In this document: one piece after another, positions 6,154-56,677 of the stretch
How the letters are laid out: the number at the start of each line of letters is the position of its first letter
How positions within the stretch are numbered: the first letter of the stretch is position 1
Source of the DNA: Mobula hypostoma
Taxonomy: Eukaryota
Reading direction: 5' to 3'
NCBI RefSeq assembly: GCF_963921235.1
Contig: NC_086097.1
Span: 38,008,001 to 38,072,000, forward strand
DNA: 64,000 nt
Position numbers and translations under genes: made by a program
Notes under the pieces: model-generated
Told to the model about the DNA's origin: nothing
Databases searched by the model: none
What the model saw: only the letters and a program-made list of their open reading frames with translations

Positions 6154-7035
6154 AGGAATTGGAGATGGGGAGCGGATAGTGCCAGCATATAAATTATTCT
6201 AACATGCGATGGCTAAAAACACTCCAGCTCCAGCTCACGCTCGCTCACCGATGGAAATACACAAAGACAGCATTGGCTTGTATCTTTTCAAGGAGAAAAA
6301 CTTTTTCTAAATGGCTGAGTTAATGGAAGTAAACTTTTTACATTCTTCAAGAGCTCAAAACTATTGATTTTCCATTTACAATCTAGTAGACCCTAGAATG
6401 ACTATTAAATTACGTATTGTTGTTGTCAGACTCCTATCAAAAAGTTATTGCAAATAAAGCTTGAGCTTCTATTGTGTAATAATTCAGAATGATTTAGAAA
6501 TACAATTTGGTATTGTCTGCCTTTGGATTGCAATAACTTCCAAATGTCAAATACCGGTATATGCGCATTATTGGAGGTAGAAGACCATCACTTTAGCTGA
6601 AGGTAGTCGATCATTTTTTTCTTGTTGTGATGTTACTGCAAGTAAAAACATTTTCTTTCTCAAAGTCCTTTACATTCTATGTCTTTTGGTATTCTCTTTC
6701 AGAGGATGGAGTCACAAACTCAATTTTAGGCATCCATTCAATTCTGGTAGATCTTATAAAGTCTTTCTCCAGTATTCTTAAACTTTTGGTAACAGTACTC
6801 TGGGTATTGCATCCAAGTTACCAATTAAAAGGAGAGAAGCAATATATTGTTCTGTTTCTACCTGCAACACAGAGTTTCCACTCTGATTATATACAGTGCT
6901 GGTTGGCTTTTAGCTAATGTTTTGTTTACCTAACATCCTATTTGTGTGATCCCACATTTTCCTGTATGGTTTTCAAAACATTTTGAAAAATTTAACTGCA
7001 TTCCAAGGAAAAAAAGATTTTGACTTAACATTGAA
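6154..7035. repeat. Left arm of long diverged inverted repeat (partner 13488-14395)
   Basis: Colinear reverse-complement similarity throughout, e.g. acaaagacagcattggc / gccaatgctgtctttgt. The ORF track shows matching peptides (LSEDGVTNSIL) on opposite strands. Confidence 0.92.
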
Positions 7036-11556: not shown

Positions 11557-11861
11557 TCACTCACTGTAGATGTGAGTGCTACTGGGCGATAATCATTAAG
11601 GCAACTCACATTATTATTCTTAGGCACTGTATAATTGTTGCCTTTTTGAAGTAAGTTGGAACTTCCATTCATAGCAGTGAGAGGTTGAAAATGTCCTTGA
11701 ATACTCCCACCAGTTGGTTGGCGCAAGTTTTCAGAGCCTTACCAGATGCTCCGTTGGGGCCTACTGCCTTCCGAGGGTTCACCCTCCTGAAAGACTGCTG
11801 ACATCGGCCTCTGAGACAGATCACAGGGTCATCAGGTGCAGCAAGGATCTTTACAGCTGTA

Positions 11862-12240
11862 AACACAACTTACTTCCGGTAATTCCCTCCCCCTCCCTTC
11901 CCCTATTCCTATTTCACTCTGCTCCCTCTCCCAGCTGCCAACTACCTCCCTTGTGGTTCCACCTCCTACTACTACCCATTGTGTTTTCCCCTATTTCTCC
12001 TTCAACTTTCCTGCCTATCACCTCCCTGCTTCCCCTCCCCCACCCTTTATCTTTCCCCTGACTGGTTTTTCACCTGGAACCTACCAGCCTTCTCCTTCCC
12101 ACCCTCCCCCACCTCCTTTATAGGGCCTCTGCCCCTTCCCTCTACAGTCCTGATGAAGGGTTCTGGCCCGAAATGTTGACTGATCGTTTCCACGGATGCT
12201 GCCTGACCTGCTGAGTTCCTCCAGCGTGTTGTGAGTGTTG
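11862..12240 (+). mobile_element. Penelope pseudo-LTR insertion with 13-bp TSD
   Basis: Flanked by ctttacagctgta at 11849-11861 and 12241-12253. Nearly the same sequence as the region following the GIY-YIG ORF at 16312-16690. Confidence 0.85.
12145..12182 (+). ncRNA. Minimal type I hammerhead ribozyme motif
   Basis: cagtc-CTGATGA-a-gggt(tctg)gccc-GAAA-tgtt-gactg: stem I, intact core and stem II, vestigial stem III. Confidence 0.75.
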
Positions 12241-13487
12241 CTTTACAGCTGTAGTTATATTTTCCCTTTCAAAGCGGGCATAGAAGGCATTGAATTCATC
12301 TGGTAGTGAAGCATCGCTGCCATTCATGCTGTTGGGTTTTGCTTTGCAGGAAGTCATGTCTTGTAAACCCTGCCAGAGATGTCGTGCATCCGATGTCGCC
12401 TCCAACCTCGTTTGAAATTGTCTCTTCGCTCTTGAAATGGGTCTCTGCAATTCATACCTGGTTTTCTGGTACAGACCTGGGTCGCCAGACTTGAATGCCA
12501 CAGATCTAGCCTGCAGCAGACAATGTACCTCCTGGTTCATCCACTGCTTTTGATTTGGGAACATACAGCAAGTCTTTGTAGGCCCTTTGAAGTCGGTAAC
12601 AACTGCAGTATACTCACCCAGATTCGAAGATGAATCCCTGAATACGGTCCAGACCCCCGATTCAAAGCAGTTCTGTAAATGCTCCTGTGCCTTCCTTGTC
12701 CATACGTTCTTGGTCCTCACGACTGGTGCTGCAGACTGGTTTTCAGTCTCTGCCTATACTCAGAGAGTAGAAATACAGCTAGGTGATCAGACTTCCTGAA
12801 GTGAGGATGTGGAATAGCACGGTAGGCATTCTTGATGGTGTTATAGCAATGGTCCAGTGTGTTGTTTCTTGTCTGTGTATTGCAAGTGATCTGTTGATGG
12901 TAATGGTTTAGTAATTTTTTTTCAGCCAGGCCTGGTTAAAATCCCCCAAAACGATGGTGAAAGCGATAGGGTGTGCTGTTTCCTGCATGTTGATCCCATT
13001 GCTCAGATCATCTAAAGCCTGATTGACATTGGTCTGAGGTGGAATGTATACACAAAAATCTCCCGTGGTAGGTAAAATGGACAGAACTTAATTGAGAGAA
13101 GATATTCCAGGTCTGGTGAGCAGAATTGGGACAGCACTGTTCTATTTGTGCACCAAGAAGAGCTGATCATGAGGCATACTCCTCCACCTCTGTTTTTGAG
13201 AATCTGTAGATCTATCCTGATGGTGCATAGTAAACCCGTCGATCTGAGTCGCTGCATTGGGTGCGGATTCCGTGAAACATGGTCCTAATGTCCCTCTGAT
13301 TCGGCACTCTAGTTCTGAGATCATCGATTTTATTCACCAGAGACTGCACTTTGCCAACAAGCTGGTCAGTATTAGGAGTCTAAAACCCCATTTCCTTAAA
13401 CGCACTTGGATCACTGACCTACAGCCACGTTTTCTACGTGGAATCCAGCGAGTTGTACATCCACAATTGGCTTTGATTCCATCAGTT

Positions 13488-14395
13488 TTCAATGTTAATT
13501 AATCTTTTCTCCCCCTCGGTATGCAGTTGAATTTTTCAAAATGTTTTGAAAACCATACAGGAAAATGTGGGTCCACAGATAAACAGGATGTCAGGTAAAC
13601 AAAACATCAACTGAAAACCAGCCAACAGTGTATATAATCAGAGTGCAAACTCTGCAGGTAGAAACAGAACAATATGTTCCTTCTCTCCTTTTAATTGGTA
13701 ATTTGGTTGCAACACCCAGAGTACTGTTAACAATCCGAGAATACCAAAAGGTTAAGAATGCTGAAGAAAGATTTTAAAAGATCTACCAGAAGTGAATGGA
13801 TGGCTAAAATTGAGTTTGTGACTCCATCCTCTGAAAGAAGAGAAGATAAAAGACCTGGAATGAAAATGGACTTTGAGAAAGAAGATGTTTTTATTTGCAG
13901 TAAAATCACAAAAAGAAAAAATGATTCACTGTCTTCAGCGAAATTGATGGCCTTCTACATATTGGGCACATATTGGCATTCAGAAGTTATTGCAATCCAA
14001 AGGCAGACAATACCCAATTTTATTTCTAAATCACTCTGAATTATTACACAATAGATGCGCAAGCTTTATTTACAGTAACTCTTTGATAGGAGTCTGACAA
14101 TTAACAACAATTGTTTATTTAGTAGTCATTCTCGGGTCTGCTAGATTTTAAATGGAAAATCCAATGCTTTTGAACACCTGAAGTGGTGACAAGGGTTAAT
14201 GGAAGTAAAATGTTTACTTCCATTAACTCAACTATTTAGAAAAAGTCTTTTTCCTTAAAAAGATGCAGGCCAATGCTGTCTTTGTATATGTCCATCAGTG
14301 AGTGTGAGTTTGAAGGTGGGAGCAGGATTGCTATAGCCACCCCAAGTTAAAATGATTCATGTGCAGGCACTGTCTGCTCTTCATCCCCAATCCCT
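13488..14395. repeat. Right arm of long diverged inverted repeat (partner 6154-7035)
   Basis: Reverse complement of the left arm. The inner end abuts the 5' end of the LINE at 9425-13485. Confidence 0.92.
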
Positions 14396-14834
14396 GTTCT
14401 CATTATAATTATGGACCCTTTTTTTTAAGAGAAAAGGGATGAGACATGTTGGTTATTTACATATATTCATTATTTTACTCTGCATTGAAGTAAAACAGAC
14501 CAACTGAAGTAAATTAAGCATTTTAGAAAAACAGTCACATCTTCAACCATTTGGTCCATGTGCTTTGAACTTCCTTCTTCAAGCTCCTTCTACACCCTCT
14601 TACTGTTAATGTAAGACCATTGTTTTTGATCATTCATCTGCCTTAATACTTCAGTAGTTCCAATGACACCTCAGATAACATTCTTGACTCAAAGAGTCAA
14701 AGAATTTAGTGTTCAAGTTGAACATGAAAGGTCTAGGCACAGATTCTATACCAACATTATGAAGCCACAGCTCTTCCCACACATCAGGCAAGAGACTAAA
14801 AGGAATAGGTAGTGTATTTGGGTAATACATTCAG

Positions 14835-15935
14835 AATGCTAGAGGAACTCAGCAGGTTAGGCAGCATCTATGGAAATGAATGAACGGTTGACGTTTCAAG
14901 CCCTTTTCCAGGACTGGAAAGGAGGGAGAAGATCCCAGAATAAAAGGACAGGGTGGAAGAGAGGAAGGATGATAGCTAGAAGGTGATAGGTGAAGCCAGG
15001 TGGGTAGGAAAGATAAAGCTGGAAAGGAAGGAATCTGGAAGGGTGGGGGGAGGGGGACTATAGTAGAAAGGGAAGGAGGAGGGGGCCCAGTGGGGGGGGG
15101 TAGGTGATAGAAGAGGTAAGAGGCCTACGTGGGGAATAGAAGAGGGGTAGGGGAGGGAAATTGTTTTACTGGAAGGAGAAATCCATATTGATGCCATCAA
15201 GTTGGAGGCTACCCAGATAGAATATAAGGTTGCTCCGCCAACCTGAGGATGGCCTCCTCTCACCATAAGAAGAGGCCATGGACTGACATGTTGGAGCAAG
15301 AATGGAAATCAGAATTACAATGTTTGATGACTGCAAATTTTTGCTTTTGGTGGATGGAGTGGAGGTGCTCGATGAAGTGGTCCCCCAATTTATAATGGGC
15401 CTCACCTCACCATTGTAGAGGAGGCTACATCAGGAGCACTGAACACAATAGACGACCCTAGAAGATTTGCAGGTGAAGTGTTGCCTCACCTGGAAGGACT
15501 GTTTGTGGTCCTGAATGAAAGTGAGGGAGGAGGTGAATGGGCAGATGTTGCCCTTGGGCTGCTTGCAGGAGTAAGTGCCAGGTTGGATGTTGATGGCGAG
15601 GGATGAATGGACAAGGGAATGATCCCTCTGGAAAGCAGAGGGGGGCTGAGGTAAAGATATGTTTGGTAGTAGGAACCGTTTGGAGATGGTGGAAGTTGCA
15701 GAGGATGATGTGTTTAATGTGGAAGCTCATAGGATGGTAGGTGAGAACAAGAAGCACGTTATCACTGTTAAGGCAATGGGAAGAAGGTGAGCGTGGATGT
15801 TTGGGAAATGGAAAGTGAGGGCAGCTTTAATGGTGGAGGAAGGGAAACCCCATTCTTTGGAGGACATTTCTGATACACTGGAATGGAAATTGCATCCTGG
15901 GAACAAATGCGGCCAGAGATGAAAGAACTGAGAGA
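14835..15935 (-). mobile_element. Penelope-like element fragment (RT C-terminus, GIY-YIG, pLTR)
   Basis: Minus ORFs LVLTYHPMSFHIKHIILCNFHHLQ..PTTKHIF and LIFYLGSLQLDGINMDFS. Confidence 0.8.
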
Positions 15936-16029
15936 AGTATTTGGCTACATGAATTGTGAGGGTATAAATCTAGATAGCTGCTTTCTATTCAAGTTCTATG
16001 TAAATAAAGGATTCAAGGGTGATAACAGC

Positions 16030-16715
16030 AATCTCACTATTCTCTGTTGCATCCGGTGCGGCCTCCTCTACATCAGTGAAACCCGACGCAGATTGGGGGG
16101 CCGCTTCGTTGAGCACCTCCGCTCCGTCCACCACAACAGACAAGATCTCCCGGTAGCCACCCACTTCAACTCTTCTTCCCATTCCCATTCAGATATGTCC
16201 ATACATGGCCTCCTCTACTGCCATGTTGAGGCTAAACTCAGGTTGGAGGAACAACACCTCATATACCGTCTAGGTAGTCTCCAGCCCCTTGGTATGAACA
16301 TAGAATTCTCCAACTTCCGATAATTCCCTCCCCCTCCTTTCCTCTATCCCTATTTCACTCTGCCCCCTCCCCCAGCTGCCTATCACCTCCCTCATGGTTC
16401 CGCCTCCTTCTACTACCCATTGTGTTTTCCCCTATTCCTCCTTCACCTTTCCTGCCTATCACCTCCCTGTTTCCCTTCCTCCAACCCTTGGTCTTTCCCC
16501 TTACTGGTTTTTCACCTGGAACCTACCAGCCTTCTCCTTCCCAGCCTCCCCCCACCTTCTTTATAGGGCCTCTGCCCCTTCCCCCTACAGTCCTGATGAA
16601 GGGTTCCAGCCTGAAACATCGACTCATCGTTTCCACCGATGCTGCCCGACCTGCTGAGTTCTTCCAGCTTGTTGTGGGTGTTGTTTTGATCCCAGTATCT
16701 GCAGATTATTTTGTG
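16030..16715 (+). mobile_element. Penelope-like element 3' fragment (GIY-YIG endonuclease plus pLTR)
   Basis: C.RCGLLYISETRRRL..RFVEH..VATHFN..EQHLIYRLGSLQPLGMN, the typical PLE GIY-YIG domain. Confidence 0.9.
16589..16625 (+). ncRNA. Minimal type I hammerhead ribozyme motif
   Basis: agtc-CTGATGA-agggttccagcct-GAAA-catc-gact. Confidence 0.72.
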
Positions 16716-17689
16716 TTAGCAATCTCACTAAAGTTGACCATTCAATAACCATCCTCACTTGATAATATTCTCCTCACTTTCACACCTTGATATTGGATTC
16801 CCAATAAAAGTAATAAGCTTCCCTCAAATTTATCTCTAGATGAAATATTTTATGATATTTCATTTTATTTGAATAAAGAAAATAAAGTTTCTTAAAGAAA
16901 ATAAAGAAAATAAATCTTCCTTTACAAGGATGAACTTAATACTTTTAAATTGTATAACACCACAGCAAACAATCAGGGGGATTAATGATATATTGGCCCA
17001 TATAGCATAGGGGTTGAAGTCCAAAGTTGATTTTGCTGAGATTCTCCTAAGTTGGGTTGCTGAGGAAGTGGCAAGAATAAGAAAAGGGTAAATATAAATG
17101 GCTGCTTAATAATTAGTGGGAACTTGGTGGACCCAAGAGCCTGTTTCTGTGCTGTAGCTCTATGAGTCTGTTTGTACATCTGACGTGCAATTTTGGTCTT
17201 CATATCTCACTTCTTCAGAGTTGTTGCATTGGTATAAGGCTGGTGTTCCATGGAATGATTGTCTATGATCAAGGGAGAATTTTATAAGAAAAATGATCTC
17301 ACTGACAATTCTGGGAGAGATTGACAGAAAAGCTACTGAGAACTTGTTTCTTCTTGACTGTCCAAATAGAACTCAAGGGAGTACCCTTTGAATAAAGAGG
17401 GTATATTTAATACTGAGATAACAAATTTCTTTATGTCAAAGACTGTAAGTGTTCAAATTATTTAGTTTAGAAGGATGTGGATGCTTAGTCACTGCTCATC
17501 CTCAAGACTCCATGAGTTTTGGATAACCCATGAATGAGGGTTTGTGCTGTAGGGGACAAGGCACAGAATTGATCGTGATCTTCTGAACAGGTGGAGGAAG
17601 GAACCATATCATCCTCCGTAACTTCCACCATCTCCAAAGGTGGAGGAAAAAAAACATATGCTGTGAAGTCCCAACACAGACCCCCATGG

Positions 17690-20029: not shown

Positions 20030-20495
20030 TCATTGAAACTGAAACTGACTGGATATGAAAGGAACACACACCAAAGTTGCTGGTGAACGCAGCAGGTCAG
20101 GCAGCATCTCTAGGAAGAGGTACAATCGACGTTTCAGGCCGAGACCCTTCGTCAGGATATGAAAGGCATGGATAGAGTCGACACGAGGAGGATATTTTCA
20201 TCAATGGGAGAGTCGGGGATCAGAAGGTACAGCCTCAGAATAAAGGGACATCACTTTAAAACTGATTTCAGAGGGATTTCCACAGGCAGATGGTGGTGAA
20301 CCAGCAGAATTCGCTGAGACAGAGGGCTCTGAAGGCCAAGTCTTTGGCAGAGATGGTTCTTGATTGGTAAAGGGATTAAGGTTTACAGGGAGAAGGCAGG
20401 GAAATGGGGTTGGGGGAAAAAAATGTGTCATAATTGAATGGTGGTGCAGACTCAATAGGGTGAATGGTCTAATTGTGCTCCTCTATCTTGTGGTC
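20030..20495 (+). mobile_element. CR1 LINE 3' fragment interrupted by a 92-bp Penelope-derived insert
   Basis: CR1 3' similarity (cagcctcagaataaaggga, ctaattgtgctcct) on either side of the insert. Confidence 0.75.
20063..20154 (-). mobile_element. 92-bp Penelope-derived insert carrying a hammerhead core
   Basis: TSD ggatatgaaagg at 20051-20062 and 20155-20166. Minus strand reads cCTGACGAagggtctcggcctGAAAcgtcgat. Confidence 0.8.
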
Positions 20496-22249: not shown

Positions 22250-22445
22250 GAGAATCTGCGGGTGCTGGAAATCAAAGTAATACACACAAAATGCTGGAGG
22301 AACTCAGCAGGCCAGGCAGTATCTGTGGAAAAGAGGATAAAAGGGTCCTGGTGAAGAATCTCGGCCCGAGATGTTGACTGTTTACTCTTTCTGATAGATG
22401 TTGCCTGGCTTGCTGAGTTCCTCCAGCATTTTGTGTGTGTGTTAC
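22250..22445. mobile_element. Fold-back Penelope pLTR element
   Basis: Arms acacacaaaatgctggaggaactcagca.. / ..tgctgagttcctccagcattttgtgtgt enclose a degenerate hammerhead. Confidence 0.8.
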
Positions 22446-23905: not shown

Positions 23906-26105
23906 AATGGTGTTACTAGCCATGGATGTCGAAAACTGGTCAGTTTGAGGCACAGGAGAATAATCTGTGGTCATATCGTAGTGTGATGATGAAGAGAGTG
24001 AATGTCTCGCCATTGAAGACGAGAGAGGATGGGGTAGGCTGAGTTGCACAGAGCTGAAGCCTTTTGGGCTTATTTGTCCTTTCAAGAGTCAGCATGAACT
24101 CAGACTACTGTTCAGCTTTGATAATACGCTACATGTAACTGGCCTCCATTTCATCAGGGGAACATCATCATTCTTCCTTAATGGCAGAGTTGTGAAAGGT
24201 GCTCGGGACATCTGATCTCAGCAGTTTGGAAACCCCTCCAGACTTGTCCAAGCAGCAAAAGCCTGCTTCCTGCATTAATTACGTCCAGCCAGCTGCTCTG
24301 CCTCATATTGATCCAAATTACAAATGCAGAGGATTCCCTTTCAATATTTAGTTTTGTTATTAAACAATTACAAGTAATCCATATAACTAGGCTTTGGTAC
24401 CTATCCGGTTCGAGAGGCTGCTCTTCCTCCCTTATAATTTCCTGTGAATATTCAAGAAGGAATTTGGCAAGAAATGATTGAGGCATTGAATTAATAATTT
24501 AGCTTTCAGCCTTTAGCTAACCAGTTTAAAAAAAAATTGTATGCTCACGGCCATGTCAAAAGTTTTTTTTTGCCCATGTTTTGATATTATTCTGAGCAAC
24601 TATTTTGTTACAAATGGCTCTTGTATATGGTAAGTGAGATCATAAGTATACAGTATTGATTTAGATGAGTGATCAGATTTTTATCATGCTCAAACAGTGA
24701 TGTTTGCATTTTGGAAGGTACTGTCAGGTTCAACATGTCATTGCTGGACAAGTTTATTTTTGTACCAGTAAGAGTAAGTATGAATGGAAATGTATAATAA
24801 TTAACTATCTCCTATTAATCTCAGTGAAGGAGAGCAATACTCTGAGTTCCCTTTTCACACTAATTATTTATTTATATAGTAAGTTTCATGTCTTGTAGTG
24901 TACTGCTGCCACAAAACACCATGACTGTGCTAATAAATCTGATTCTGATTTTATCCATGTATATGTCGAGAATTAATTGCATGAGTGAGAAAACTAACAA
25001 AGGGTGACCAAAAAACTAGACAATCTTCCCATCCTACTTTAAGAATAGATAGGAAAAGGTAAATGAAGTTTAAAAAAAAGGTAAGTAATAGATCTTAAAT
25101 GAAGAAATGCTAAAAAAAATTTAAAATTGAGGAATATAAACAAGGTAATAGAAAAAGGGGATTAAAATGGGAAGAATATTCATGTATTAGTGTTGTGCTC
25201 AATTATCTGAGAACAGTTTAAGTTGTAGAAATTTCATTGATTAGCTGTTGATAAATCTTAGTCATTCTAAACTCCTTTGCTCTTTATGTACTAAAAATCT
25301 TAGCTAATGTACTCCCTAGTTAGACGTGTAGAGCAGTTTAATGACCATAATGTGAAATTACAAGCTGGTTTGCTGAAATAGGATTATATCTGCTACTTGG
25401 ATGCATTTGTGGTGTTTTGTTTTCTGTATTTTCCTTGCTTATGTGTATAAATGTCAATTATTGTTTTCAGTGAAGCAGAATAGCATTCCCTTAATAACAT
25501 TGCACTAATAATGAAGAGAAATTCCTGTATATTGATATGAGGGAGAGATATTTAAAATCATTGTCTAATGAAACAAATACAAGAGGACATGTTAAAGATG
25601 AGAGAAAAGATATTAAGGAGATTTGAAGGGAAGGTTTGCATACAGAGGGTTGAATTTTTGGAACCTGCTACCAAAGGAGGTGGTGGAATTTGAGACAGTG
25701 TCTGTTTACTGAACATTTAGTCAGGCACTTTAATGGGCAAGGTATAGAAGAATAGAGACCAATGGGTACAAACGGAGTTAATGTAGAAGAGTGGCAAAAA
25801 GGTCAGTGTGGATAGGAAGGCCCCTCTTCTGTGCCTTATTCCTCTGACCTATTTTGAATAAAATAAAGAATGAAGTGTTGCATTAATGGTTTTCTACAGT
25901 CCTGATGTTTCTTTATAGCTTCTACTTCATTAACCTTCTTGTATGAACCTAAGGGTAGAGTCCCTTCAAAAATACTTCAATAGCCGCATCAACTTTTAAA
26001 CACTGCATAAGAAGCTATTTGGATAGAATGTCAATTTTGGATGAAATGCAGATGAAAACAATAATCACATTTGTCACTGTTCCATGTTTTTCATTTTCTT
26101 TATAG

Positions 26106-26783
26106 AAGTTACAGAAGGAACGCATGTTAGATCATCAGGTTTTGAAGAGTATAATCCAGAGGTTTTCGCTGCAAGAGGAATTCCAAGCTTTGAGTCTCAT
26201 TGTATGATCAGCTCAGATTCAGGAATAGAGATGACACCGGGGGATGCTCTTGATTTGGCCAAAACTTTGGTGGACCCAATAGGGTCAGAGAAAGTAGAAG
26301 TCCAAAATTATATTGACTTATGCCATTCTGGAGAATCAAAAGCTCAGGAGTTAGCTGAGACATTCTGGGAAGAGAAGACGATGCCTTTTGTAGATAACGT
26401 ACCAGATGACACAGAAGCCTCCCCCGAAAACATGAAGAAGTCAGTTGAGGAAGCAAAGTTAATAGAAGAAATAAGCCCAAGCCTGAGTCCTGAAGAACCA
26501 ACAACGGCACCATATGTGGAAGAGCCTTCAGATGAAGATATCTCCGAGAAATGGGAAATGGGGGACACGCAGCAGAGTACTCACATAACTCCTACGTGCT
26601 CGGTGCCAGCTGAAGTTCTGCTCACTGAAATAGAAACCATAGTAGATCCCAATAGTGGGTGCAAATCACAGCATGAACAAGAGACTAAACCAAAGCAAGG
26701 ATCCGATGTAGTTCCAACTGTGACTGTATCAGAGCCTGATGACGACAGTCCAATCTCTCAAACACCTACACCCTCAAGTTCAG
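26106..26783 (+). CDS. RTN1: Reticulon-1 (RTN1-A) large N-terminal acidic exon, equivalent to mammalian exon 2
   Basis: RTN1 motifs SDSGIEMTP, TTAPYVEE and SDVVPTVTVSEPDDDSP..TP.SS. Acceptor ttttctttatag|AA, donor CAG|gtaatt, 678 nt, phase 1/1. Confidence 0.93.
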
Positions 26784-29149
26784 GTAATTATTGCATTAGG
26801 TTGCCAATGTTCATATACGTGTGTGTGTGTGTGTATTTATAATTGTCTTTTGCTCATTGCATTACAGTAATTATATTGTCTGTATACTGTATTTGTTGAC
26901 ATTCTGCTTTGTCATTATATTTTTCTTGGCAGTTGGTGTAAAAAGCTTTGAGTTTTTCCCCATCCTGTGGCCTTTCCATATAATTAGTAACAGTGCTTCA
27001 GCTCATTATTTACCTGTCCAATTAATGGAGCTAGGCAGCTTCAGCACCAGGGTGGCAAATAAAATATTTTTAAAAATTGCCACTGACAGCCAAATGCGAA
27101 AGGAAGCATACAAAATGCATTTCCAGAGGGAAGACTACTCTCCTTTGTACTTACTGAAATTAATTTGTAGTGTTTGATGGATGCATTGGCTGGTGTAAGT
27201 CCTGATTTAAAATGCATGTTGTAGATCTCTGGTTGCCCACTCATTCCTGCTTTTCTTTCTCTCTTCCTTCTTGATTATTTTCTTTTACTTATTTCAAGAA
27301 AATAAAATAGAATAATAAAAAATCCCACCTGTCTGCTTTTCTCCTTACCTTCCTCTTCTCTATGTTACTGTCTGTCTTCACAAGTGTCTGAATTATAATT
27401 TAACTGCCATCAAGTCACTGACTATATATTTAGACATTTGAGAATTTTTTCGTTAGCCTCTGACAAAATGTTTAATTCTGCCATATGCCATTGTATTTCC
27501 GCTAGACCTCGAAATTCATTCCCATTTAGCTTTGTTAGAGATCAATTGCAAACATGGCAAAGACAATGGCTTTTAAAACATCTGTGAGAAGGTGTCTACC
27601 TTGAGTCAAATTATTAATGTGAACTGCAGTGCAGAAGTGATTTCATTTTGAACTGGCCAAAATATATCCAGATTTTCCATCTTTGCAGAAATTTATGTTC
27701 TGAACCCATATAGTTACTCCCCAAATTTGCCATTTGGATGTGAGCTATTTTCTCTTCAAAGGTTAGTTCAACATCCACAACATCTGGAAAGTAATTAAAA
27801 TATTTTATTTTATAATACCGCCAATTCATGTATTACTTCAGCCTTTTTATTTCAAGATGTGCACCTGTCTGTTTTTCACTTTAGTTAAAAGAGCAGGATT
27901 GTGGATGGGTTGGGGTAGAAAAAGTAACTATATATTTTAGTTGCGCATGAATTTGATAAATAGCAAAATTCTATTTGGGGGAAAACATTTGCCCCTCTGC
28001 TTCTTACTGATTTGTACTTTTTCAGACTGCACAAACAATTGTTCAAAACAAAAATCAACAAATTCCATTATGTTGATCCCTTCTTTGTGATTTTTGTGTG
28101 AACATTGATGGTTATTGGCAGAATGGTTAAGCAGTAGATCACAATCTTGCTTGCCCATTCTCTGCATACCAGGTCATAGCAAAGTTTAGGTCACACATAT
28201 TCTTACTCATGATATCTAGAAATAATTATTTTGGCAAAAGATTGGATTGGCTCTGACATTTTGCTTTGATAAATAGCATTATTTGCTTCGTGCTAAAACT
28301 AGTATTAATTTTCTTTCTCAAGTCTCATTACAAATGGTTATTCTGTGGTAGTCAGTCATTCGAATTAGTATTCTAACCTACAGTTAGAGAACAATAATTT
28401 ATCAATTTGTATCTCTACTGATGACAAAAGAGTTGCTATTGACATTAATGTGGAACCTGACTATTTACACGTTTAATAAGAGTAAGCAGATTCATACACA
28501 TAATACCTGGCAGGACACTATTAAGAAAAAAATACCGTCCAAGGTTATAGTCATTTAGTCCCCAAGTTTTGCAGGCTGAAGAAGTAAGAATGAATAGTGG
28601 GATTACAGAGATTCTCACATTTAGAATAACCAGTTGGTGAATTCCTCCTTTGTTCCATTATCAAGCAGGGGAGTTTTGCCTGTGTGCTACACAACCTGCT
28701 TCAAATGAATAAGGGAATATTGAAAGACTTGCTTGTCCACAGGAATGGTAATAATTGGAAATCAATTTTTTGCACCTGCTAGTAGTTTGATTTTAAAAGA
28801 AGGGCTAAAGTTTTTAGTTCATGAATGGAAACAATTTTCAACCACAAAATTCTTGTGCCATGTAAGATCTTCAGGACTGTTGAGTAGCCACTTGTATGGA
28901 ATTGTCATCAGGATTTCTGAACTTGGATGCAGAATAGAGCAGATGGAAGCTGAAAGTTTCCTGCATGAGTGTTCCATGAGCTGGCCACTCCAGAGGTAGA
29001 GAAAGTTTAGGCCAGTCAATGAATAGCCCTCCAGAATAATAGGAAAAGGCACAGGGACTTGTTGGTATAGGGTTGGTAATCAGGTCGTGCTACATTTTGC
29101 AACACTTTGAAAGAGTGCATTGACACTAATAGGTAAGGAACTCCATGGG

Positions 29150-32100: not shown

Positions 32101-32800
32101 CTTCCACCCCTCTCAATCCAAAGGCAGATCTAAAAATCCGCATTGGGCAGGATTTATTAATAAAGTAGTTAGCAAACTATATGGGATCTTTTGCTTCATA
32201 CTGGTATTGAAGAATTAAGGACAGAAGTAAGGTAAATTGTGTTAAAACTCTAGTTAGGCCACAGGTAGAGTATATCATCCAGTTATGATTCTTCAAAGCA
32301 ACACACACAAAGTGCTGGAGGGACTCAGCAGGCCAGGCAGCATCTATGGAAAAGAGTAAACAGTCAACGTTTCAGGCCAAGACCCTTCAGCAGTCCTGAT
32401 GAACGGTCTCGGCCTGAGACAGCGACTGTTTACTCTTTTCCATTTATGCTGCCTGGCCTGCTGAGTTCTGCCAGCATTTTTTGCGTGTTGTTTGAAATTT
32501 CCAGCATCTGCAAATTTCCTTCTGTTCACGATTCTTCTAAGAAAGAGGGGGGTATCCATTAGATTGGTTATCAGGAGGTGGAATTTTAGCAAGAAAATAC
32601 TCTTTGGAGCAGTGTTGTGAAGGATAATACCAGGTTTATTCCGCTCAGAGAGTGGAGGAAAGACATTTTTTGGAGTACATGTGGTAACAATCAAGTACCT
32701 GGAGCTCTCTGCATTTGAGAGGGGTGGAAGTTACAATGGTCAATGACTTAAGAAGGAAATAGAATAGATACTTGAGGTAAATGGACACAGGAATGGGTTG
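29150..32800 (+). mobile_element. Cluster of old decayed CR1 sequence, including a better preserved 3' piece at ~29610-30140
   Basis: Scattered CR1 ORF2 and 3' UTR motifs (gagattcaccaggatgttgcct, gggctgaaagggcc..tctgtgctgt, aaatttgctgatg, gttaggccaca). Confidence 0.6.
32295..32529. mobile_element. Fold-back Penelope pLTR element with two opposed hammerhead motifs
   Basis: Long inverted arms. TSD gattcttc at 32287-32294 and 32530-32537. Confidence 0.8.
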
Positions 32801-33005
32801 CTGTACCGAGCCAACCTCTGAACGGTATCAAATCTACGACTATAGGTGGAAAGAAAAGGGAGATTTACCCTCACCTGATCATAAAGTTCTGTTAACATCC
32901 AGTTGAGTTTTAGAATTGTCAGTTTTGATTGTGTGCTTTTGAAATGACATAAAGAAAGTAACTATGCTCACGGAGCATATTTTCTGTCTGCATTTATTAT
33001 TGCAG

Positions 33006-33818
33006 AAGAATCTGATTCACAGATTGAAGCTGCTTACCATTTCCTGGAGGAGGAACATCCTTCTACCTGCAAGACTTCGGAACAAGCACAGTGCTTTCCT
33101 TTAGATGCCACAACTGAAAAGACACCCACAAGTGATACTTTAACAAAACTAGATGAGCCTGAGCTGAATGCGCCTCAGCTACAGGCAACAACCTTGGACC
33201 TTGATGCCAGCAGTGCTGAATCTGGAGACTCAGAAATTGAGGTAGTGCCAGATGAATCACTTTCTGTGGAAGAAGCTGAAGCTTGCAGCTACATGGCATT
33301 CAGACAAGCTGGTGGAGCTCCACCATCTTCTGTTTCTTCAGTCCAGTACAGCATTCTGAGGGAGGAACGTGAAGCTGAGCTTGACAGCGAGCTTATCATC
33401 GATCCATATGATGCTTCATCGGCATCTGAAGAAAGTGTCCAAAGAGAACAAGATTCCCCTTTGAAAACTGATAGCATGGGGAGAGAATCTGATGAAAAAA
33501 TCTTAACAATGGACAATCAGGAAGAATCAGAATGTCAGCTGAGTCAATCAGCGGAGTATCCTGTATCCTATGCCTTCGAGGGTACAATTGGGAAAGATTT
33601 GGCCACAACTGAAACAGCCAACCCTCAGAATTCTTCAGCACCTTTCGTTACACCTGAGGTAGCAGTTGAAGAGCTATATCCTGAAGAAGCCTCCGAAGAA
33701 ACGGCAAGAAAAGCAAGTGCGAGTAAATCTTCAGATGAAGCCAAGGCAAGAAAGGATTTGGGGAGCAGCCAGTCCATAACTTCTGGACAGTTTCTGCTGG
33801 TACTAAATAAGAAAAGAG
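33006..33818 (+). CDS. RTN1: Reticulon-1 (RTN1-A) second large exon, equivalent to mammalian exon 3
   Basis: Motifs ASSAESGDSEIEVV and SVQYSILREEREAELDSELII..DASSASEES. Ends LLVLNKKR, like RTN1 L.LNKQK just before the RHD. Acceptor ttattgcag|AA, donor GAG|gtaatt, 813 nt, phase 1/1. Confidence 0.95.
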
Positions 33819-36800
33819 GTAATTTAAAATATTATTTTGATACTAATTACATTAAAATATCTTCATTTTCCACTAATTTGAAACTCTATTTACCACTTCC
33901 CTTTTTATTTGGAGATATTAAGAAATATTACAGCTTGTTGTTTGATTCCAAGTGTGTTAATTAATATCTTTTATTTGCCATTATTTTAGTTAAAGTTGAC
34001 AGATTGTTTTCTTGATTCCATGGCCCCCTAGCTCAATGTCTATTTCCCTGACAATTTAATTATGTTCTGCTATGAATGGCTGCTACCCAGTCAAGTGAAA
34101 CAAAAACAGTTCAATATTTTGAGATGATGAACTTCTGAGTATGAACCATCTTAATGAACGAGCGATTTTCATGAGTTTGCCTTCTAGCTGTTTGTTCTTT
34201 GGAAGAGTTTTTATTGTAAATGGCACAGTCTGGGCAGATACTGTTAATATGCAGTGTTATCCTCCTTTGCCAATCTGCATCCTTGTGGCCAAGGTTAGCT
34301 AAAATAACCATTACTCCCTTTGCATTGACACTAATCTCTAGAAATAATGCAGACTAAATGCATACAACTGAACAAGAACCCTTTGAACAACAAAGTGGAT
34401 AAATATTCTTTTAACCTGCAGAATCTGAAATTTAATTAGAGGTTTATTTTGAAGTTTGATTTGGTTTAACAATATCTAGTAAATAAGTCAGCCCATTTTC
34501 CAGGCCTCTCCTTCAATGTTTGCCGTTCATTGAGATCCGGGTTCACCTTTTACCTTGATTTGTCTACGTAGCTCTTTATCAGTCATCACACAAGTAATAT
34601 GTTGTGGTCTGACTGCAAGATTAATGTCCCACCAGCAGTACCAGTTTAACCTTCAGAATCAGAATTAGGTTCAAATCAGATAAGCTAAACCTTCATTTAG
34701 CTCATCAACTCCTTTTCAAAAATCCTTCAAAACCTCAGTACAGCTCACCTGAAATCTTTTGCATTCAAAGAAAAAAAACATCTGGTTTATGTATTCTTTC
34801 CTCATAATTTAACTCTTGTAATCCTGATCACTTTCTCATGAATCTATGCTGAAAGGTTAACATCCCTTTCAATATATAATCCCAGACTGGTACACAGTGC
34901 TGAAGATAGGCCCTAACCAGAACTATATACACTTGTGGCAAATCTATATCCTCTTTGTATTCTATTCTCCTAGTTATAATGATTATAATAGCCACATCCC
35001 ATTAGCTTTTTAAAAAATCTGACAGCAAGATATTTCGGTGATCTGTGGTTGATCTGAAGATGCTCAAACTGAAACCTCCAGGGATTTGCTTATTCACTTA
35101 ATATATTTAATCCTTCGTTATAATTTTGTTTCTGCATAGCGTATTATGCTACTAATCATTATATCATTGGTAAACTCAAATATTTTGCCACTGTTGTGTT
35201 GTTAATTTAAGGTGCGTGAGGCCTCACCACAGATCCTTGTGAGATGCCTTTTTTTACTTTCTTGTAATTCGAGTGTATTATCCACTTCCCCTATTCTGTG
35301 ATCCATACAGCTAACCATTTCTTAAGTGAAACTCTTTTAAATACTGTACCTTCTAGAAGTTCATTTGAATCTTATCTGTCTACATTCCTCTGTAGCTTCC
35401 TTCAGTTATGTTTTTGAGCTACTGCTGTTGTTTCTTCTAAAACTCTAATCTCTGAATTTAAGACCATAAGACATTGGGCCGAATTCCCCAATTCTGCTCA
35501 TTTGGGTCTGCTCTGTGAACTTGAAGTAGTGGCTGGAGAGATTTCCTGTGATAAACCAATTTCTTGAACTTCGAGAAGGCCTCATGCATAGAAAATGTCA
35601 AATAGCACTGCGTTTCATCTCTCTTCCGTCCAGGCATTGTGGAAAAGCAGCGGACGCAGACTTCTCTTTTTCTATCTTTTAATTGAAAAAACATATCTGT
35701 AACTTCACCAGTAAATTGCTTTTAGAATACCCCAGGATATCAAGATCATTTGATCTGAAAGTGATACAAATTCTAAACAATAAGCAGGTGGAATGCATGT
35801 TCTTTGGGAGTACTAGTCACTAAAATAGACCTGGATATTATATGCAGTGTGCAGTCTGTTCTCATTTGAAACAGTATTATTGCGCCTTCATCAAGAATGC
35901 TTTAGTTAGTTAGATAGCATTTAAAAATTACATTGTTGATAACATTTAATTACTAATCCATGACATACTTCGCTACCAATGTTCTTACTTTTGGACTTGA
36001 GCCCCTGACCCACTGACCAGCCGTAAGATATCAGATCCTCATCCTGGTGGCATGGTGAAACTGCGCCCAAGCATCAGCATGGAGGTGTTAACATTCTGTG
36101 TCTGTTTGTTATTAGATACTCTCTTGAAAGATTTTTTTCCTGCACTCTAAATTCTCAATGAGTAAATTGAGGCACTCAGTTAGGAAATGGGTCCCGTTGT
36201 CTGGCATTTACCTGCTGAAGAAGAGAGTCTTTTGGGTAAACTTGAAGCAGTTGGACTGCTAGTCACTGTTTGAGTCTCACTTGAAGTTAATGCTGTACTA
36301 GTTCCCTTTGTAGTTTAAAATGAGAAGTTCTGCATGAATTTTTTACATTGTATTCAAATTACATTCCCGTCAGAATGGGTAATCCCACCTCGACAGTGAT
36401 TTGATTGAAAATGAATTGCTTAATTGAAGCTGATCTCTTTCTCCCTTATGATTCCTTCCAAACAATATTCAATTCTGTGTCACCCTTGCACCTTTAAAGT
36501 CAGGGTATTGTTGGTTCTAGCTGCCTGAATCAAAGAACTAGAGGTAGGTACCACTGCTGAATACTGCACAGGCTCCCTTTGATCAGGCATTAGAGTAAAA
36601 GCACAACAGTGCTCTCATTTGCCTGTCTAGCATCCACTTGTAGCATTGGATGGAAAAAGTGCAAATTCTCTCCTTACTTTAGTCACTGAGCTAAGTTAGA
36701 CCCAAGATTCGTGTTAATTTGGAATTACTCTGCTGATGTTGATATTTACCGGAGTATCAGATCAATACAAGACAGCTGGGAATACCATTTTATGACAGTT

Positions 36801-48364: not shown

Positions 48365-51300
48365 AGGGCAGTTTTACTAGAGCTGTTAAGAGTGATTTAA
48401 ACTAATATGGCAGGGGGATGGGAACCAGAATGATGGAGCTGAGGATGGGCCAGCAGGTTTACAAGTAGATGATGTAATATGTAACATGAATGTAAGGAAA
48501 GACAAGCCAATGATTGGGTACAAATGCAGACAGAGCAGAGAGTTAAGTTGTACCACAGAGGCAAAATTCATAAGGGCAAAGAATGCAGGACTGAAGGTGC
48601 TGTATTTAAATGCACGCAGCATTCGGAATAAGGTGGATGAACTCATGGCACAATTAGAGATTGGTCGGTATGATATTGTGGGCATTACTGAACGATGGCT
48701 GAAAGAAGGCTATAGTTGGGAGCCTACCATCAGAGGATGTACTTTGTATTGAAAGGACGGGCAGGAAGGCATAGGCAGTTGTGTGGCTCTGTTGGTAAGA
48801 GATGGAATTACATCTTTAGAAAGAGGTGATATAGGGTCAGAGAATGTTAAATCTTCGTAGGTAGAGTTAAGAAACTGCAAGGGTAAAAAAAAACACATTT
48901 TGGGAGTTGTATATAGCCTCCAAATAGTAGCCAAGATGTGGGGTTGAGATTGCAAAGAGAGCTGGAAAAGGCATGTAATAAGGGTAATGTCACAATTGTA
49001 ATGGGGGGCTCCAATATGCAACAGGATTGGAAAAACCAGGTTGGTTTCAGATCGCAAGAGAGGGAATTTGTTGAGTGCCTATGAGGTGACTTTTAGAGTA
49101 GCTTGTACTTGAGCCTACTCGGGGAGAGACAATCTTAGGGTAGGTGTTGTGTAATAACCCCAATTTTATTAGTCAGCTTAATGTAAAGGAACCCTTAGGA
49201 GGCAGTGATCATGATATGATTGAATTCATAATGCAAGTTGAGAGGGAGAAGCATAAGTTGGATGTGTTAGTATCACAATGAAATAAAGGAAATTGCAGAG
49301 GCATGAGGGAGGAGCTTGCCTGAGTGGATTGGAGGGGGATACTGGTGGAGATATTGGCAGAACAGAGGTGGCTGAAGTTGCTGGGAATAATTCACAAAGT
49401 GCAGGGTAGATATGTCCCATAGAAGAAATGGTTCTCATTGGCAGAGGTAGGCAACTGTGGCTGACAAGGGAAGTAAAGGACTGTATAAAAGCCAAGGAAA
49501 GGGCATATAATGTAGCAAAAGTGAGTGGGACTTGGAATGATTAAGAGGATTTTACAATCCAACAAAAGGCAACAAAAAAGCTTTATGAAGGGAAAAGATG
49601 AAATATGAGAGCAAGCTAGCCGATTATATAAAGAGGATGCTAGAAGTTCTTTCAGTTATATAAAGAGTAAAAGGGAGTTGAGAATTGTGATTGGACCACT
49701 GGAATATGATGCTGGTGAGATAGTAATGGGGGACAAATAAATTGCAGATGAACTTAATAAGTACTTTGCTTCAATCTTTACTGTGGAAGATGCTGTATGC
49801 CAGAAGTCCGTGAGTGTCAGGGAGTGCCTTTGCTATTACAAATGAAAAAGTGCTCAGCAAACTGTAAGTTCTTAAGGTGGATAAGTCACCTGGACCAGAT
49901 GGACTGGAAGGAAAGCACTGCATTAAAGTTCAGACTGCCAATGAGGTAATGATGATATAAAATGCAACCATGATGTTGCATTTTTAAAAAATATTTTCAC
50001 TTTACAGTTTGAAATAGCTTGAAATCAAAAAGGAAAGTGCAAGGATAGGTAAATAAGACAATGAGACAGGAGTCCTGAAAGAGGTTGCTGAAGAGATAGC
50101 GGATCCATTGGTTATGATCTTTCAAGAATCACTGATCCTAGCATGGTCCCGGAGGACTGGAAAATTCCACATGTCACTCCACTCTTCAAGAAGGGAAGAA
50201 GACAAAAGAGAGGAAATTAAAACCAGTTAGCCTAACTTCAGTGGTTTGGAAAGTGTTAAGAGTATGTTATTAAGGACAAGGTTTCAGGGTACTTGGAGAC
50301 CAATGGTAAAATAAGTCAAAGTCAGCATGGTCTCTGTAAAGGGAAATCTTGCCTAACAAATCTGTTAGAATTCTTGGAGGAAGTATCAAGCAGGGTGGAC
50401 AAAGAAGAGGCAGTGGTTGTCATTTACGATTTTCAGAAGGCATTTGATGCGGTTCCTTACTTGAGGCTGCTTATCAAGATAAGTTCTTATGTTGTTACAG
50501 GTCATATGCTGGCATGGATAGAGGAACGGCTGACAGGCAGGAGGCAGTGAGTGGGAATAAAGGGGGCCTTTTCTCATTGGCTGCCAGTGACTAGTGGTGC
50601 TCCTTGGGTCAGTATCAGGACCACTACTTTTCACATTGTGTATCAATGATTTAGATAATGGAATTGGTGGCTTTGTGGCAACATTTGTGGATAATATGAA
50701 GATAGGTGGAGGGGTAGGTAGTGCTGAGAAGCATTGCAATTGTAACAGGACGTAGACAAATTGGAAGAATGGGCAAAAAAGTTGCAGGTGGAATATAGTG
50801 TTGGGAAATGAATGATAATGCATTCTGGTAAGAGGAACAATAGTTCAGACTATTATCTAAATAGGGAGAAGGTTCAAATATCAGAGGTGAAGAGGGACTT
50901 AGGAGTCCTCATGCAAGACTTCCAGGAGGTTAATTTACAGGTTGAGTCTGTGGTAAAGATGGCAAATGCAATGTTGGCATTTATTTCAATAGAATATAAC
51001 AGCATAGAGATAATACTGAACCTTTATAAGACACTTGTCAGGCCGCACTTGGAGTATCCTCAACAGTCTTGGGCCCCTTATCTCAGAAAGGATGTGTTGT
51101 GATTGTAGAGAGCCCAGAGGAGGTTCACGAAGATGATTCCGGGAATGAAGGGGGTTAACGTATGAGGAGTGTTTGGCAGCTTTGGGCCTGCACTCACTGG
51201 AATTTAGAAGAATGTGTGGGGATCTCATTGAACCTACTGAATGTTGAAAGGACTAGATGGGGTGTATATGGAAAGGATGTTTCCTATGGCTGGAGTAGCC

Positions 51301-51617
51301 AGAACTAGACGGCACAGCCTCAGAATTGGGGGGGCGGGGGGAGTGGGGCAACCGTTTAGAACAAAAGTAAGGAAGGTTTTTTTTAGCCAAAGAATGGTGA
51401 ATATGTGGAATGCCCTGTCACAGACTGTGGTGGAGGCCAAGTCTGTGGAAATGTTCAAAGCGGATTTTGATAAATTACTGATTGGTCAGGGCATCAAGCG
51501 ATATAGTGAGAGGCAGATGTATGGGGTTGAATGAGATCTGGGACCAGCCATAATGGAATGGCAGAGTGGGCTCGATGGGCTGAATGGCCTAATTCTGCCC
51601 CATGTCTCATGGTCTTA
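48365..51617 (+). mobile_element. Long CR1 LINE (EN+RT, decayed)
   Basis: LKVLYLNARSIRNKVDEL..IVGITERWL, SQHGLCKGKSCLTNLLEF, LVRPHLEY and a CR1 3' tail. Confidence 0.92.
49898..50068. repeat. Inverted copy of 51603-51772 embedded in the CR1
   Basis: Direct reverse-complement match, e.g. cattaaagttcagactgccaatgaggtaatgatgatataaaatgcaa. Confidence 0.93.
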
Positions 51618-51847
51618 TTTACCTTTCCTTGCACTTTCCTTTTTGATTTCAAGCTATTTCAAACTGTAAAGTGAAAATAATTTTTAAAAATGCAACATTG
51701 TGATTGCATTTTATATCATCATTACCTCATTGGCAGTCTGAACTTTAATGCATGCGTTCCTTCGAATCCATCAACAGTAAAACTAGCCAATCAGCTGGAC
51801 AACTGGAGCAGCAGATCCTGTACTGCCTCAGAGCTCCTGTGACCCAG

Positions 51848-52266
51848 TGCTACCAGGTTCGGATATGGCCCAAGTGCGGAGTGAGAGACAGTTGGATAGT
51901 TCGCAGAATTTAATACGAGTAGCATTAAAGGGAAAATAAAACAATAAACGCTAGGCCAAACAGGGCCGCTAACTAAAACTCTCAAATGGAAAACAAGGCC
52001 TACACTGGGGCTGAAAAGAACATCTAAATATTAAATGAATCCCGCCAGTCTTCAGAGTCAGTTGACTTGAAAGTCCAATATCTCAGGCAAGGCTGAATGC
52101 AAAACAGCAGCGAAGCGTTGCTGTGCTCTGTCCAAGTCTCGACAAGCACTACAATGGCAAGTATGGAGTTAAGTACTATCATGATTAAATAATAATTAGC
52201 TGACACGTGCAAATTCACAAGTGCAATTGCCTCATCTTCTGCGCTGCCAAATCCGTGGTTGTGACA
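51848..52266 (-). repeat. 3' LTR of Gypsy element
   Basis: Direct repeat of 56678-57102. Confidence 0.93.
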
Positions 52267-55200: not shown

Positions 55201-56677
55201 CAATCGATCAGTAGGTAGAGTCGGGATAACCAGGGGAGACCAAGTACCAGTGGTAGTTCAGGTGAATTAAACAGATAGAAAGATACTTCTTCATGATGGT
55301 TGCCTTCAAGCACCAGTTGGAGGGGTTGGGTGGAAAGGTGGGTCTGGCCAGTTCCCAGAGGTCAACCATCCAGCGCCTTGACGTTCATCTTTTCTCTTAA
55401 TTCCTGAGTTGGAACTTCATGGGTCTGAGACCTCCACGACAAGGAAGCTGCGAGCATTGCTGGATTAGGAGAAGTTGACTGAAGAGAGAACCGACCCATC
55501 AGGATTCCCCTCCCTGCTGACGGGTATTCTCTTTTACTGGGTGCTTGGAACGTGCCGCCCGGAAGTGTCCTGGATCACCACAATAGAGGCAGGAACCGGT
55601 TCTCCAGCGCCGCTCTCATTCCTCCTGAGACAGGTGCATGCACCCCACTTGCATAGGCTCCTCCATGGGCTGGGTGCTGGGTGGTGAGGGAGGGGGAGAG
55701 GGCGAGGAAAGACGATGATTTGAAACATTCTTTCCCTGCGCCACTCAGTTACCCAGCCATCAACTCAAATAGCCAGATTAATCAGGTCATCTAGACTATC
55801 CTGCTCGTCCCGGACAGTGATCTCATGCTGCACCCCGTGTTTAGTTCACGCTGGAAGGCAGTGATGAGAGATGTCTCATTCCAACCTGTCTCTACTGCAA
55901 GGGTACGGAATTTGACTGCATAGTTCCTCTGCCTTGGTGCAGGTCCAAGTGTCGGTGGGCAGCCTTCTGACCCCGTTCTGGAAGATCAAAAACCCTCCTC
56001 AACTCTGCTATGAAATGTTGGAACGACTGGGCTGCAGGGTATCCTTGCTCCTGTAAAGCGTTGAACAGGCTGAGTGGAGGTCCGTCAAGAAGATTGACCA
56101 TGTATGCCAATTTTCGCACATCATCACCAAAACGACCAGGCTGGGCTTGGCATGTCAACTTGCATTGGGTACTAAAATTACTGCAGCCATCGGGATCACC
56201 AGAATATCTGTGAGATGGTGGAATACTCGGTTCCTGAACCGTCGTGGGAGTCGGATCTGGTCCAGGAGCAGGAGCATTAGAAGCAGAGATTGTTGGGGCA
56301 GCAGTAAAGGAGGACCTGAGAGATGCTGGGAGTGGGACTGAGGCGGACTGAAGCTGCTGAATTGAGCTGGCGAGAACATTAATGGCTGTCAGCTGATGCT
56401 GGTTGTTCACGGTAAGTTCATGGATGGCGGCCATGAGTGCGGAAATCGCAAACACCTGAGTCTGATTGTCTGTGGTGAGCTGTTGTACAGTTGCAGCTAG
56501 CGATGATACCTCTTCCTCCAAGTGAGACGGGGCTTGTCAGCATGAGGTTATCTGCTGCATTGCCTCTGTAACTTCACTGAGAACAGATTCCATTGCCTGT
56601 AGCTTGTCTCCTACCTGACCAGTGAATCTCACTGCTGCTCTGTCTCTGCTGGGTCCACCTTTGTGTTCGAGTCATGC

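Follow-up and report, generated by a model that had tools for sequence, protein, structure and literature searches.

Two Penelope-like minimal hammerhead relics, very probably inert, in one RTN1a intron of Mobula hypostoma

Two minimal type I hammerhead ribozyme motifs, designated copies A and B, were found in the sense orientation in one intron of RTN1a, within a 64,000-nt stretch of the Mobula hypostoma genome (NC_086097.1, positions 38,008,001 to 38,072,000; hereafter the window, whose coordinates are used throughout). The two were shown to be separate insertions, each truncated at its 5' end, that belong to the same subfamily of a massively amplified Penelope-like element (PLE). Their helix III tetramers, AUGU and ACAU, are complementary, and a preliminary description of this DNA proposed that both copies could join in one ribozyme. 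In our judgement, A and B are very probably inert retroelement relics whose heterodimer is a coincidence of CpG decay, and a role of the pair as a device of RTN1a can almost certainly be dismissed.

Two separate Penelope-like insertions in the RTN1a intron

The motifs, the insertions that contain them and the exons bordering the host intron are as follows.

12145-12182, + strand: copy A, minimal type I hammerhead motif (sequence layout)
16588-16625, + strand: copy B, minimal type I hammerhead motif (sequence layout)
11862-12240, + strand: insertion A, 5'-truncated Penelope-like 3' end consisting of the pseudo-long terminal repeat (pLTR) only (13-bp duplication)
16040-16717, + strand: insertion B, 5'-truncated Penelope-like element with a C-terminal GIY-YIG remnant (to 16323) and the pLTR (homology, 13-bp duplication)
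526-564, + strand: RTN1a micro-exon of 39 nt, 5' border of the host intron (AG/GT borders)
26106-26783, + strand: RTN1a large exon, 3' border of the host intron (100% identity to reticulon-1a)

The open reading frame (ORF) at 26105-26785 is 100% identical to the protein named Mobula hypostoma reticulon-1a, and when the genome was searched with this protein, exon 1 was located upstream of the window, at a distance of ~49 kb, and additional exons at ~26102-26782 and 33002-33940; all of these are on the + strand. The predicted ray proteins P0001-P0003 likewise contain the 39-nt micro-exon, placed after exon 1 and before the large exon. The host intron thus spans 565-26105 (25.5 kb), and both motifs lie inside it in the orientation of the RTN1a exons, as had been described.

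In copy A, the 5' strand of stem I (12145-12149) is followed by CUGAUGA (12150-12156), an extra A (12157), a 4-bp stem II (12158-12169) closed by an intact G10.1-C11.1 pair, GAA (12170-12172), the helix III tetramer AUGU (12173-12176), U at position 17 (H17; 12177), and the 3' strand of stem I (12178-12182); its NUH site is GUU, with a cut predicted after 12177. Copy B, which starts at 16588, 4,443 nt from the start of A, has the same layout, with the tetramer ACAU at 16616-16619, C as H17 at 16620, the NUH site AUC and a cut predicted after 16620; its stem II is closed by G10.1-U11.1 in place of G-C, and its stem I has only 4 bp. In both copies, CUGANGA, GAAA and UH, the catalytic boxes, follow the type I order and an unpaired extra A lies between positions 9 and 10.1, and helices I and II measure 5 + 4 bp in A and 4 + 4 bp in B. 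The boxes, helix sizes and extra A fit the minimal, dimer-type class named in the preliminary description, and A and B are decayed members of the PLE minimal hammerhead (min-HHR) class. The presence of the two motifs, their NUH sites and their spacing were likewise confirmed, and AUGU and ACAU do form four Watson-Crick pairs in a nested double-hammerhead fold. The claim that cores and stems are intact held for the catalytic boxes of both copies, but it overlooked the G10.1-U11.1 pair and 4-bp stem I of B and the U17 of A.

An Rfam scan of the window at gathering thresholds yielded no hammerhead match, and a loose core pattern was not significant in the window alone (2 matches vs. 1.94 expected). 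A strict pattern, i.e. the exact motif satisfied by both A and B, was then searched in the 3.48-Gb genome and gave 81,303 matches (40,446 forward and 40,857 reverse), compared with 0 for the reversed control; the motif is therefore real despite the weak in-window statistics.

Each insertion is flanked by its own perfect 13-bp target-site duplication (11849-11861 and 12241-12253 for A; 16027-16039 and 16718-16730 for B), and the two are therefore independent, sharing 89.6% identity over 375 nt. Insertion A is nested inside a minus-strand long interspersed nuclear element (LINE) remnant, which we take to be Rex1-like; a few bases at the 5' start of insertion A resemble its inverted 3' end. Insertion B retains only the C-terminal ~90 amino acids of an ORF encoding reverse transcriptase (RT) and GIY-YIG nuclease, and this remnant shares 81% amino acid identity with the C-terminus of an RT and GIY-YIG ORF of 1022 amino acids at locus L044, from which the subfamily of A and B differs (~77% DNA identity in the nuclease part). 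The single ORFs of L043 and L044 (1018 and 1022 amino acids) gave RVT_1 and GIY-YIG matches, all below the Pfam cut-offs, and homologous hammerhead motifs lie downstream of long RT and GIY-YIG ORFs in L040, L042, L044, and L045. Together with the GIY-YIG remnant of B, these relatives bear out the Penelope-like origin proposed earlier. In a Pfam scan of six ORFs of the window, only two LINE RT remnants were matched and the nuclease remnant of B was not, and none of eight long-ORF loci inspected (L035, L040, and L042-L047) proved to be a clean element whose ORF is bracketed by two intact motifs on the same strand. In L044, a CX4CxxC linker upstream of the nuclease, cysteines between GIY and YIG, and a GIY-YIG with CCHH motifs are visible in the sequence; the linker region is missing from the truncated A and B. 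A CX2-5CxxC linker Zn-finger and cysteines between GIY and YIG are given as features of Neptune and Nematis (PMC8557442). Judged by these sequence features, the source of A and B appears to be an endonuclease-positive (EN+) PLE of the Neptune/Nematis type, Neptune and Nematis being taken together here.

Contigs from four of 24 runs of relatives (X5, X10, X12, and X9, the last putatively RNA) were compared with the window, but these were swamped by paralogues, such that the motif letters in orthologues were unreadable, and the small-share runs X10 and X12 contributed hardly any coverage of single-copy sequence. The organism of run X5 is ~2% divergent in single-copy DNA. One of its contigs extends, at single-copy depth, from the pLTR tail of insertion B into the unique flank, and another covers an antisense pLTR copy at 14827-14922; insertion B and the antisense copy thus probably predate the split from this organism. 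A joint omitting 11821-12240 is present in DNA contigs of runs X5 and X10.

Genome-wide abundance and decay of the motif

By helix III, the strict copies comprise 7,063 ATGT, 8,760 ACAT, 418 ATAT and, by subtraction, 65,062 ACGT copies. The family state at positions 15.2-16.2 is CG (65,062 of 81,303 copies), and these positions are non-palindromic in A (UG) and B (CA). The derivation of AUGU and ACAU from ACGT by CpG decay, as suggested in the preliminary description, is upheld by these changes on opposite strands, and each of the two motifs has lost four of its five CpGs.

A random pair of strict copies has a fully complementary helix III with a probability of 0.66, and a pair in which both copies have decayed at the helix III CpG with a probability of 0.47. 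If copies were placed uniformly, the genome would be expected to hold 4,755 same-strand pairs within 5 kb, including 3,045 ACGT/ACGT pairs and ~89 ATGT/ACAT pairs. Across the initial 31.6 Mb of contig C1, for which 79 ATGT and 100 ACAT copies were listed, two ATGT/ACAT pairs share a strand and lie within 5 kb, vs. 1.25 expected; these two other pairs (L031 and L032) are 3.9 and 3.2 kb apart, each with four helix III pairs. Among the 100 copies listed for the first 3.6 Mb, four same-strand pairs lie within 5 kb, three of them ACGT/ACGT. Given the two probabilities and the ~89 ATGT/ACAT pairs expected, the complementarity of A and B is no more than chance would provide and is most likely a product of symmetric CpG decay; the caveat to this effect in the preliminary description turned out to be the best explanation. 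Separately, the first 100 copies listed for C1 (1-3608603) include 18 opposite-strand neighbours within 5 kb and 4 same-strand ones, with 6.9 of each expected, an excess in keeping with inverted structures of PLE insertions.

G8 and G12 are essential for hammerhead catalysis. Genome-wide, the lethal change G8A was found in 5,459 of the 74,250 copies with C7 context (7.4%) and the lethal change G12A in 8,040 of the 32,476 copies with C11.1 context (24.8%), compared with changes in 9.2% of copies at one half of the helix III CpG and 11.3% at the other. Lethal CpG changes are thus common, and the bulk of copies therefore decays unprotected. At the C7-G8 CpG, the harmless U7 (12,512 copies) is 2.3 times as common as the lethal A8 (5,459), the helix III CpG being nearly symmetric; this excess may stem from master lineages with U7 or from selection acting while the family amplified. 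The pair G10.1-U11.1 occurs in 56,867 of the 81,303 strict copies (70%), including copies behind long intact ORFs, and the most amplified subfamily seems to carry this non-canonical closing pair in its master. As the majority state, it was discarded as proof of a dead copy B.

For comparison within the subfamily, six of 20 sampled loci were retained, the other 14, which were too short or belonged to another subfamily, having failed an identity threshold of 80%; all six were chosen for an intact core, and the A/B pair itself was picked for intact cores. A and B have lost four of five motif CpGs each vs. zero to three in the six comparators, and eight of the nine differences in the two motifs are CpG transitions. 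Non-CpG differences number 0/28 and 1/28 in the motifs of A and B (1/56 in total) and 16/324 and 19/326 in their flanks (35/650; Fisher p = 0.35 for motif vs. flank). In this within-genome comparison, A and B show no significant extra conservation.

Predicted folding and competing explanations

All folds described here are nearest-neighbour minimum free energy (MFE) predictions. The isolated active A-B dimer is predicted to lie 7.4 kcal/mol above two monomers, vs. 6.0-11.0 kcal/mol for three native ACGU homodimers; a B-B homodimer is predicted to be much worse, and an A-A homodimer feasible via G-U pairs. A free cofold of A and B favours an inactive fold by 11.8 kcal/mol (10.6-15.6 kcal/mol for native dimers). 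Short-range folding energy was rejected as a discriminator, native ACGU dimers being equally unfavourable. In the dimer, the stems I are predicted to be swapped and cross-paired over 4 and 5 bp, and the catalytic strand of A would therefore act on the AUC site of B and the strand of B, with its G10.1-U11.1, on the GUU site of A.

The window contains 14 matches to the pLTR terminus, seven per strand. Among 12 classified pLTR-type copies, the core is kept in three, namely A, B, and an antisense copy. Two antisense copies concern the folding of A and B.

14827-14922, - strand: core-broken pLTR copy in antisense orientation, located between A and B; a long duplex with either is predicted
20058-20157, - strand: third core-intact copy (ACGU), in the same intron and antisense to RTN1a; predicted duplex partner of A or B

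The first of these runs on into an older minus-strand PLE ORF remnant (~15176-15937), and its predicted duplex energies are approximately -80 kcal/mol with A and approximately -67 kcal/mol with B, compared with -0.5 kcal/mol for A with B. For further antisense copies at ~20058 and ~22274, a duplex gain of 59-80 kcal/mol is predicted. In the MFE structure of 12085-16700, the whole motif of A is paired with 14886-14916 and the GAUG of B is folded onto its own CAUC, and forcing the heterodimer in this 4.6-kb context costs a penalty of 31 kcal/mol. A transcript prefix ending at 15000, i.e. before B is transcribed, already traps A in its MFE structure. The family core itself can pair with its own cleavage-site strand (GACG with CGUC) in an inactive fold, and the two CpG changes of B (U7 and A16.2) preserve this inactive helix as GAUG with CAUC.

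The history of the pair would be as follows. The minimal hammerhead in the pLTR of an active element presumably serves to process the RNA of that element, dimerizing via the palindrome ACGU, as the literature suggests. After insertion, CpG deamination would have altered four of the five CpGs per motif, the changes being observed and methylation being their presumed cause, and the helix III CpG would have decayed on opposite strands by chance, leaving the tetramers AUGU and ACAU, which necessarily match each other. In RTN1a pre-mRNA, A is predicted most likely to be captured, ahead of the synthesis of B, by the antisense pLTR that lies 2.6 kb downstream, and the core of B to fold onto its own ACAUC; neither copy would cut at a meaningful rate, and the RTN1a intron would be spliced normally.

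Several points weigh against inert relics. The isolated heterodimer folds within the range of native dimers, and the predictions ignore proteins, kinetics and the energy of hammerhead tertiary contacts. The core built from the catalytic strand of A and the AUC site of B is canonical, with G10.1-C11.1 and a 4-bp stem I, and G10.1-U11.1 cannot count as inactivating B. Non-CpG divergence of the motifs is below that of their flanks, although not significantly (p = 0.35), and all three mutations at the four CpGs that contain G8 or G12 fall on the harmless C side.

It is possible, if on balance doubtful, that A and B form a latent and biologically irrelevant heterodimer, short constructs of which would cleave weakly in vitro, detectably at high Mg2+. 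Cutting would occur mainly at the AUC site of B through the catalytic strand of A, would be rare in pre-mRNA and would have no selected role, so that this explanation is compatible with that of inert relics. It is favoured by the four Watson-Crick pairs, by the cross-paired stems I and by an energy like that of native dimers. Minimal PLE hammerheads are inactive as monomers, and dimers and trimers show low activity as short designed constructs at 10 mM Mg2+ (PMC4209133, Cervera and De la Pena 2014); GUC and GUA are the fastest hammerhead sites, and AUC and GUU are among the active NUH sites (PMC3138052, review). The 11.8 kcal/mol preference for the inactive fold argues in the opposite direction, but native dimers share it and it is hence unspecific; in addition, the published min-HHR activity is low and mostly non-physiological (PMC4209133).

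Stronger versions are far less probable. We give little credence to the view that A and B, impaired as homodimers, were re-paired by opposite-strand CpG decay and cut the RTN1a intron across 4.4 kb, most plausibly once after 16620; a single cut there is more plausible than release of a 4.4-kb RNA because only the core formed by the strand of A and the AUC site is canonical. If this were true, the pair would be one of thousands of chance long-range intronic hammerhead dimers able to cut ray pre-mRNAs co-transcriptionally. Slightly less probable again is a functional intramolecular heterodimer that cuts the nascent intron or frees the 4.4-kb RNA and thereby alters RTN1a output. The sense orientation, intact cores and complementary helix III speak for it, as do the retention of the core in only three of 12 classified copies, the two sense ones being A and B, the apparent sharing of insertion B with the organism of run X5 and the conserved intronic hammerheads known in amniotes (PMC6155905). 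However, ~89 such configurations are expected by chance, the antisense trap and the 31 kcal/mol penalty stand in its way, the trap copy is present in X5 too, and the extra conservation is not significant; release of the 4.4-kb RNA would depend on cleavage at both sites, and in the second core a GUU site comes together with G10.1-U11.1. The working intramolecular heterodimer of the preliminary description is therefore not sustained, in view of the chance pairs, the independent insertions and the predicted antisense capture of A. Finally, their common orientation, single subfamily and spacing near the PLE unit length might suggest that A and B represent the paired pLTRs of a single full-length PLE or retrozyme, with hammerheads acting together to excise its 4.4-kb body. 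This idea can be set aside as ruled out by the separate 13-bp duplications; in addition, the interval contains a LINE remnant, single-copy DNA and an antisense PLE, but no RT ORF in sense orientation.

Other repeats in the window and relation to known hammerheads

Pairs of pLTR termini in head-to-head inverted arrangement at 32296-32493 and 22274-22440 form palindromes of ~200 bp, and these are likely to form double-stranded RNA hairpins in the pre-mRNA; the former, with 98-nt arms that are 84% complementary, lies ~500 nt upstream of an RTN1a exon. A long inverted repeat (6237-7008 and 13514-14309) brackets copy A, with arms that are 82-93% complementary and 6.5-7.8 kb apart. These arms are at single-copy depth in run X5, which points to a local inverted duplication or a low-copy element. 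A minus-strand Ty3/Gypsy-like long terminal repeat retrotransposon remnant occupies 49919-57070, with direct repeats (51935-52234 and 56771-57070) that are 88% identical and ORF pieces that we take, from their motifs, to be gag-, RT-, RNase H-, and integrase-like.

The minimal hammerheads described in PLE pLTRs occur as thousands of mostly solitary, variable copies per genome, and the published matches had already been filtered for tandem or nearby (<50 kb) copies (PMC4209133). The A and B family likewise resides in the pLTR. It differs from the Schistosoma mansoni min-HHR families in having a stem II of 4 bp instead of 7-8 bp; furthermore, the tetramers of A and B are cross-complementary and no longer palindromic, and B carries G10.1-U11.1. 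The 81,303 strict copies exceed the 4,000 of coelacanth and 9,000 of Xenopus (PMC4209133); the word shark is absent from the supplementary PDF of that paper, and in a search for hammerhead ribozymes with Penelope in sharks no relevant publication was found, the single match using the word for head shape. Relative to the EN+ PLEs Neptune and Nematis (Craig et al. 2021, PMC8557442), both insertions are non-autonomous fragments, and their subfamily is not that of L044.

Among the non-LTR retrozymes of amphibians (PMC7229834; bioRxiv 10.64898/2026.07.22.740005), which are linked to PLE pLTRs, axolotl has >100,000 motifs, cleavage of its tandem retrozymes is dimer-dependent (PMC7229834), and ~44% of the Xenopus tropicalis copies are intronic, a depletion relative to intergenic DNA (bioRxiv 10.64898/2026.07.22.740005). 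As presumed for the family of A and B, their weak monomers perform better as dimers, and they are kin to PLE pLTRs. They form tandem head-to-tail units of 170-400 nt that are expressed as circles, whereas A and B are dispersed, 4.4 kb apart and separately inserted. The domesticated intronic hammerheads of amniotes (RECK, CTCL/C10orf118, and DTNB; review PMC6155905) resemble A and B in being sense, intronic, type I and of retroelement origin; their conservation spans classes and they show canonical helices with tertiary contacts, in contrast to A and B, which appear to be recent copies without sign of constraint. No published account of natural heterodimers between decayed hammerhead copies was found, a weak negative with most of the subscription literature beyond reach.

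As it stands, A and B add two more decayed copies to a described class of retroelement ribozymes and are of little significance in themselves. If they were to cut in vivo, neutral decay could be said to build a split ribozyme from unrelated insertions. Whether PLE minimal hammerheads cut in vivo was left open in PMC4209133 for want of in vivo evidence, and the abundance of the motif makes this genome suited to ask whether they ever cut host pre-mRNA, with ~81,000 core-intact minimal hammerheads and 4,755 expected same-strand pairs within 5 kb, about two-thirds of them with a fully complementary helix III. For such a test, undecayed ACGU/ACGU pairs without an intervening antisense copy, for instance L034, whose motifs are 2.1 kb apart, would be better suited than A and B.

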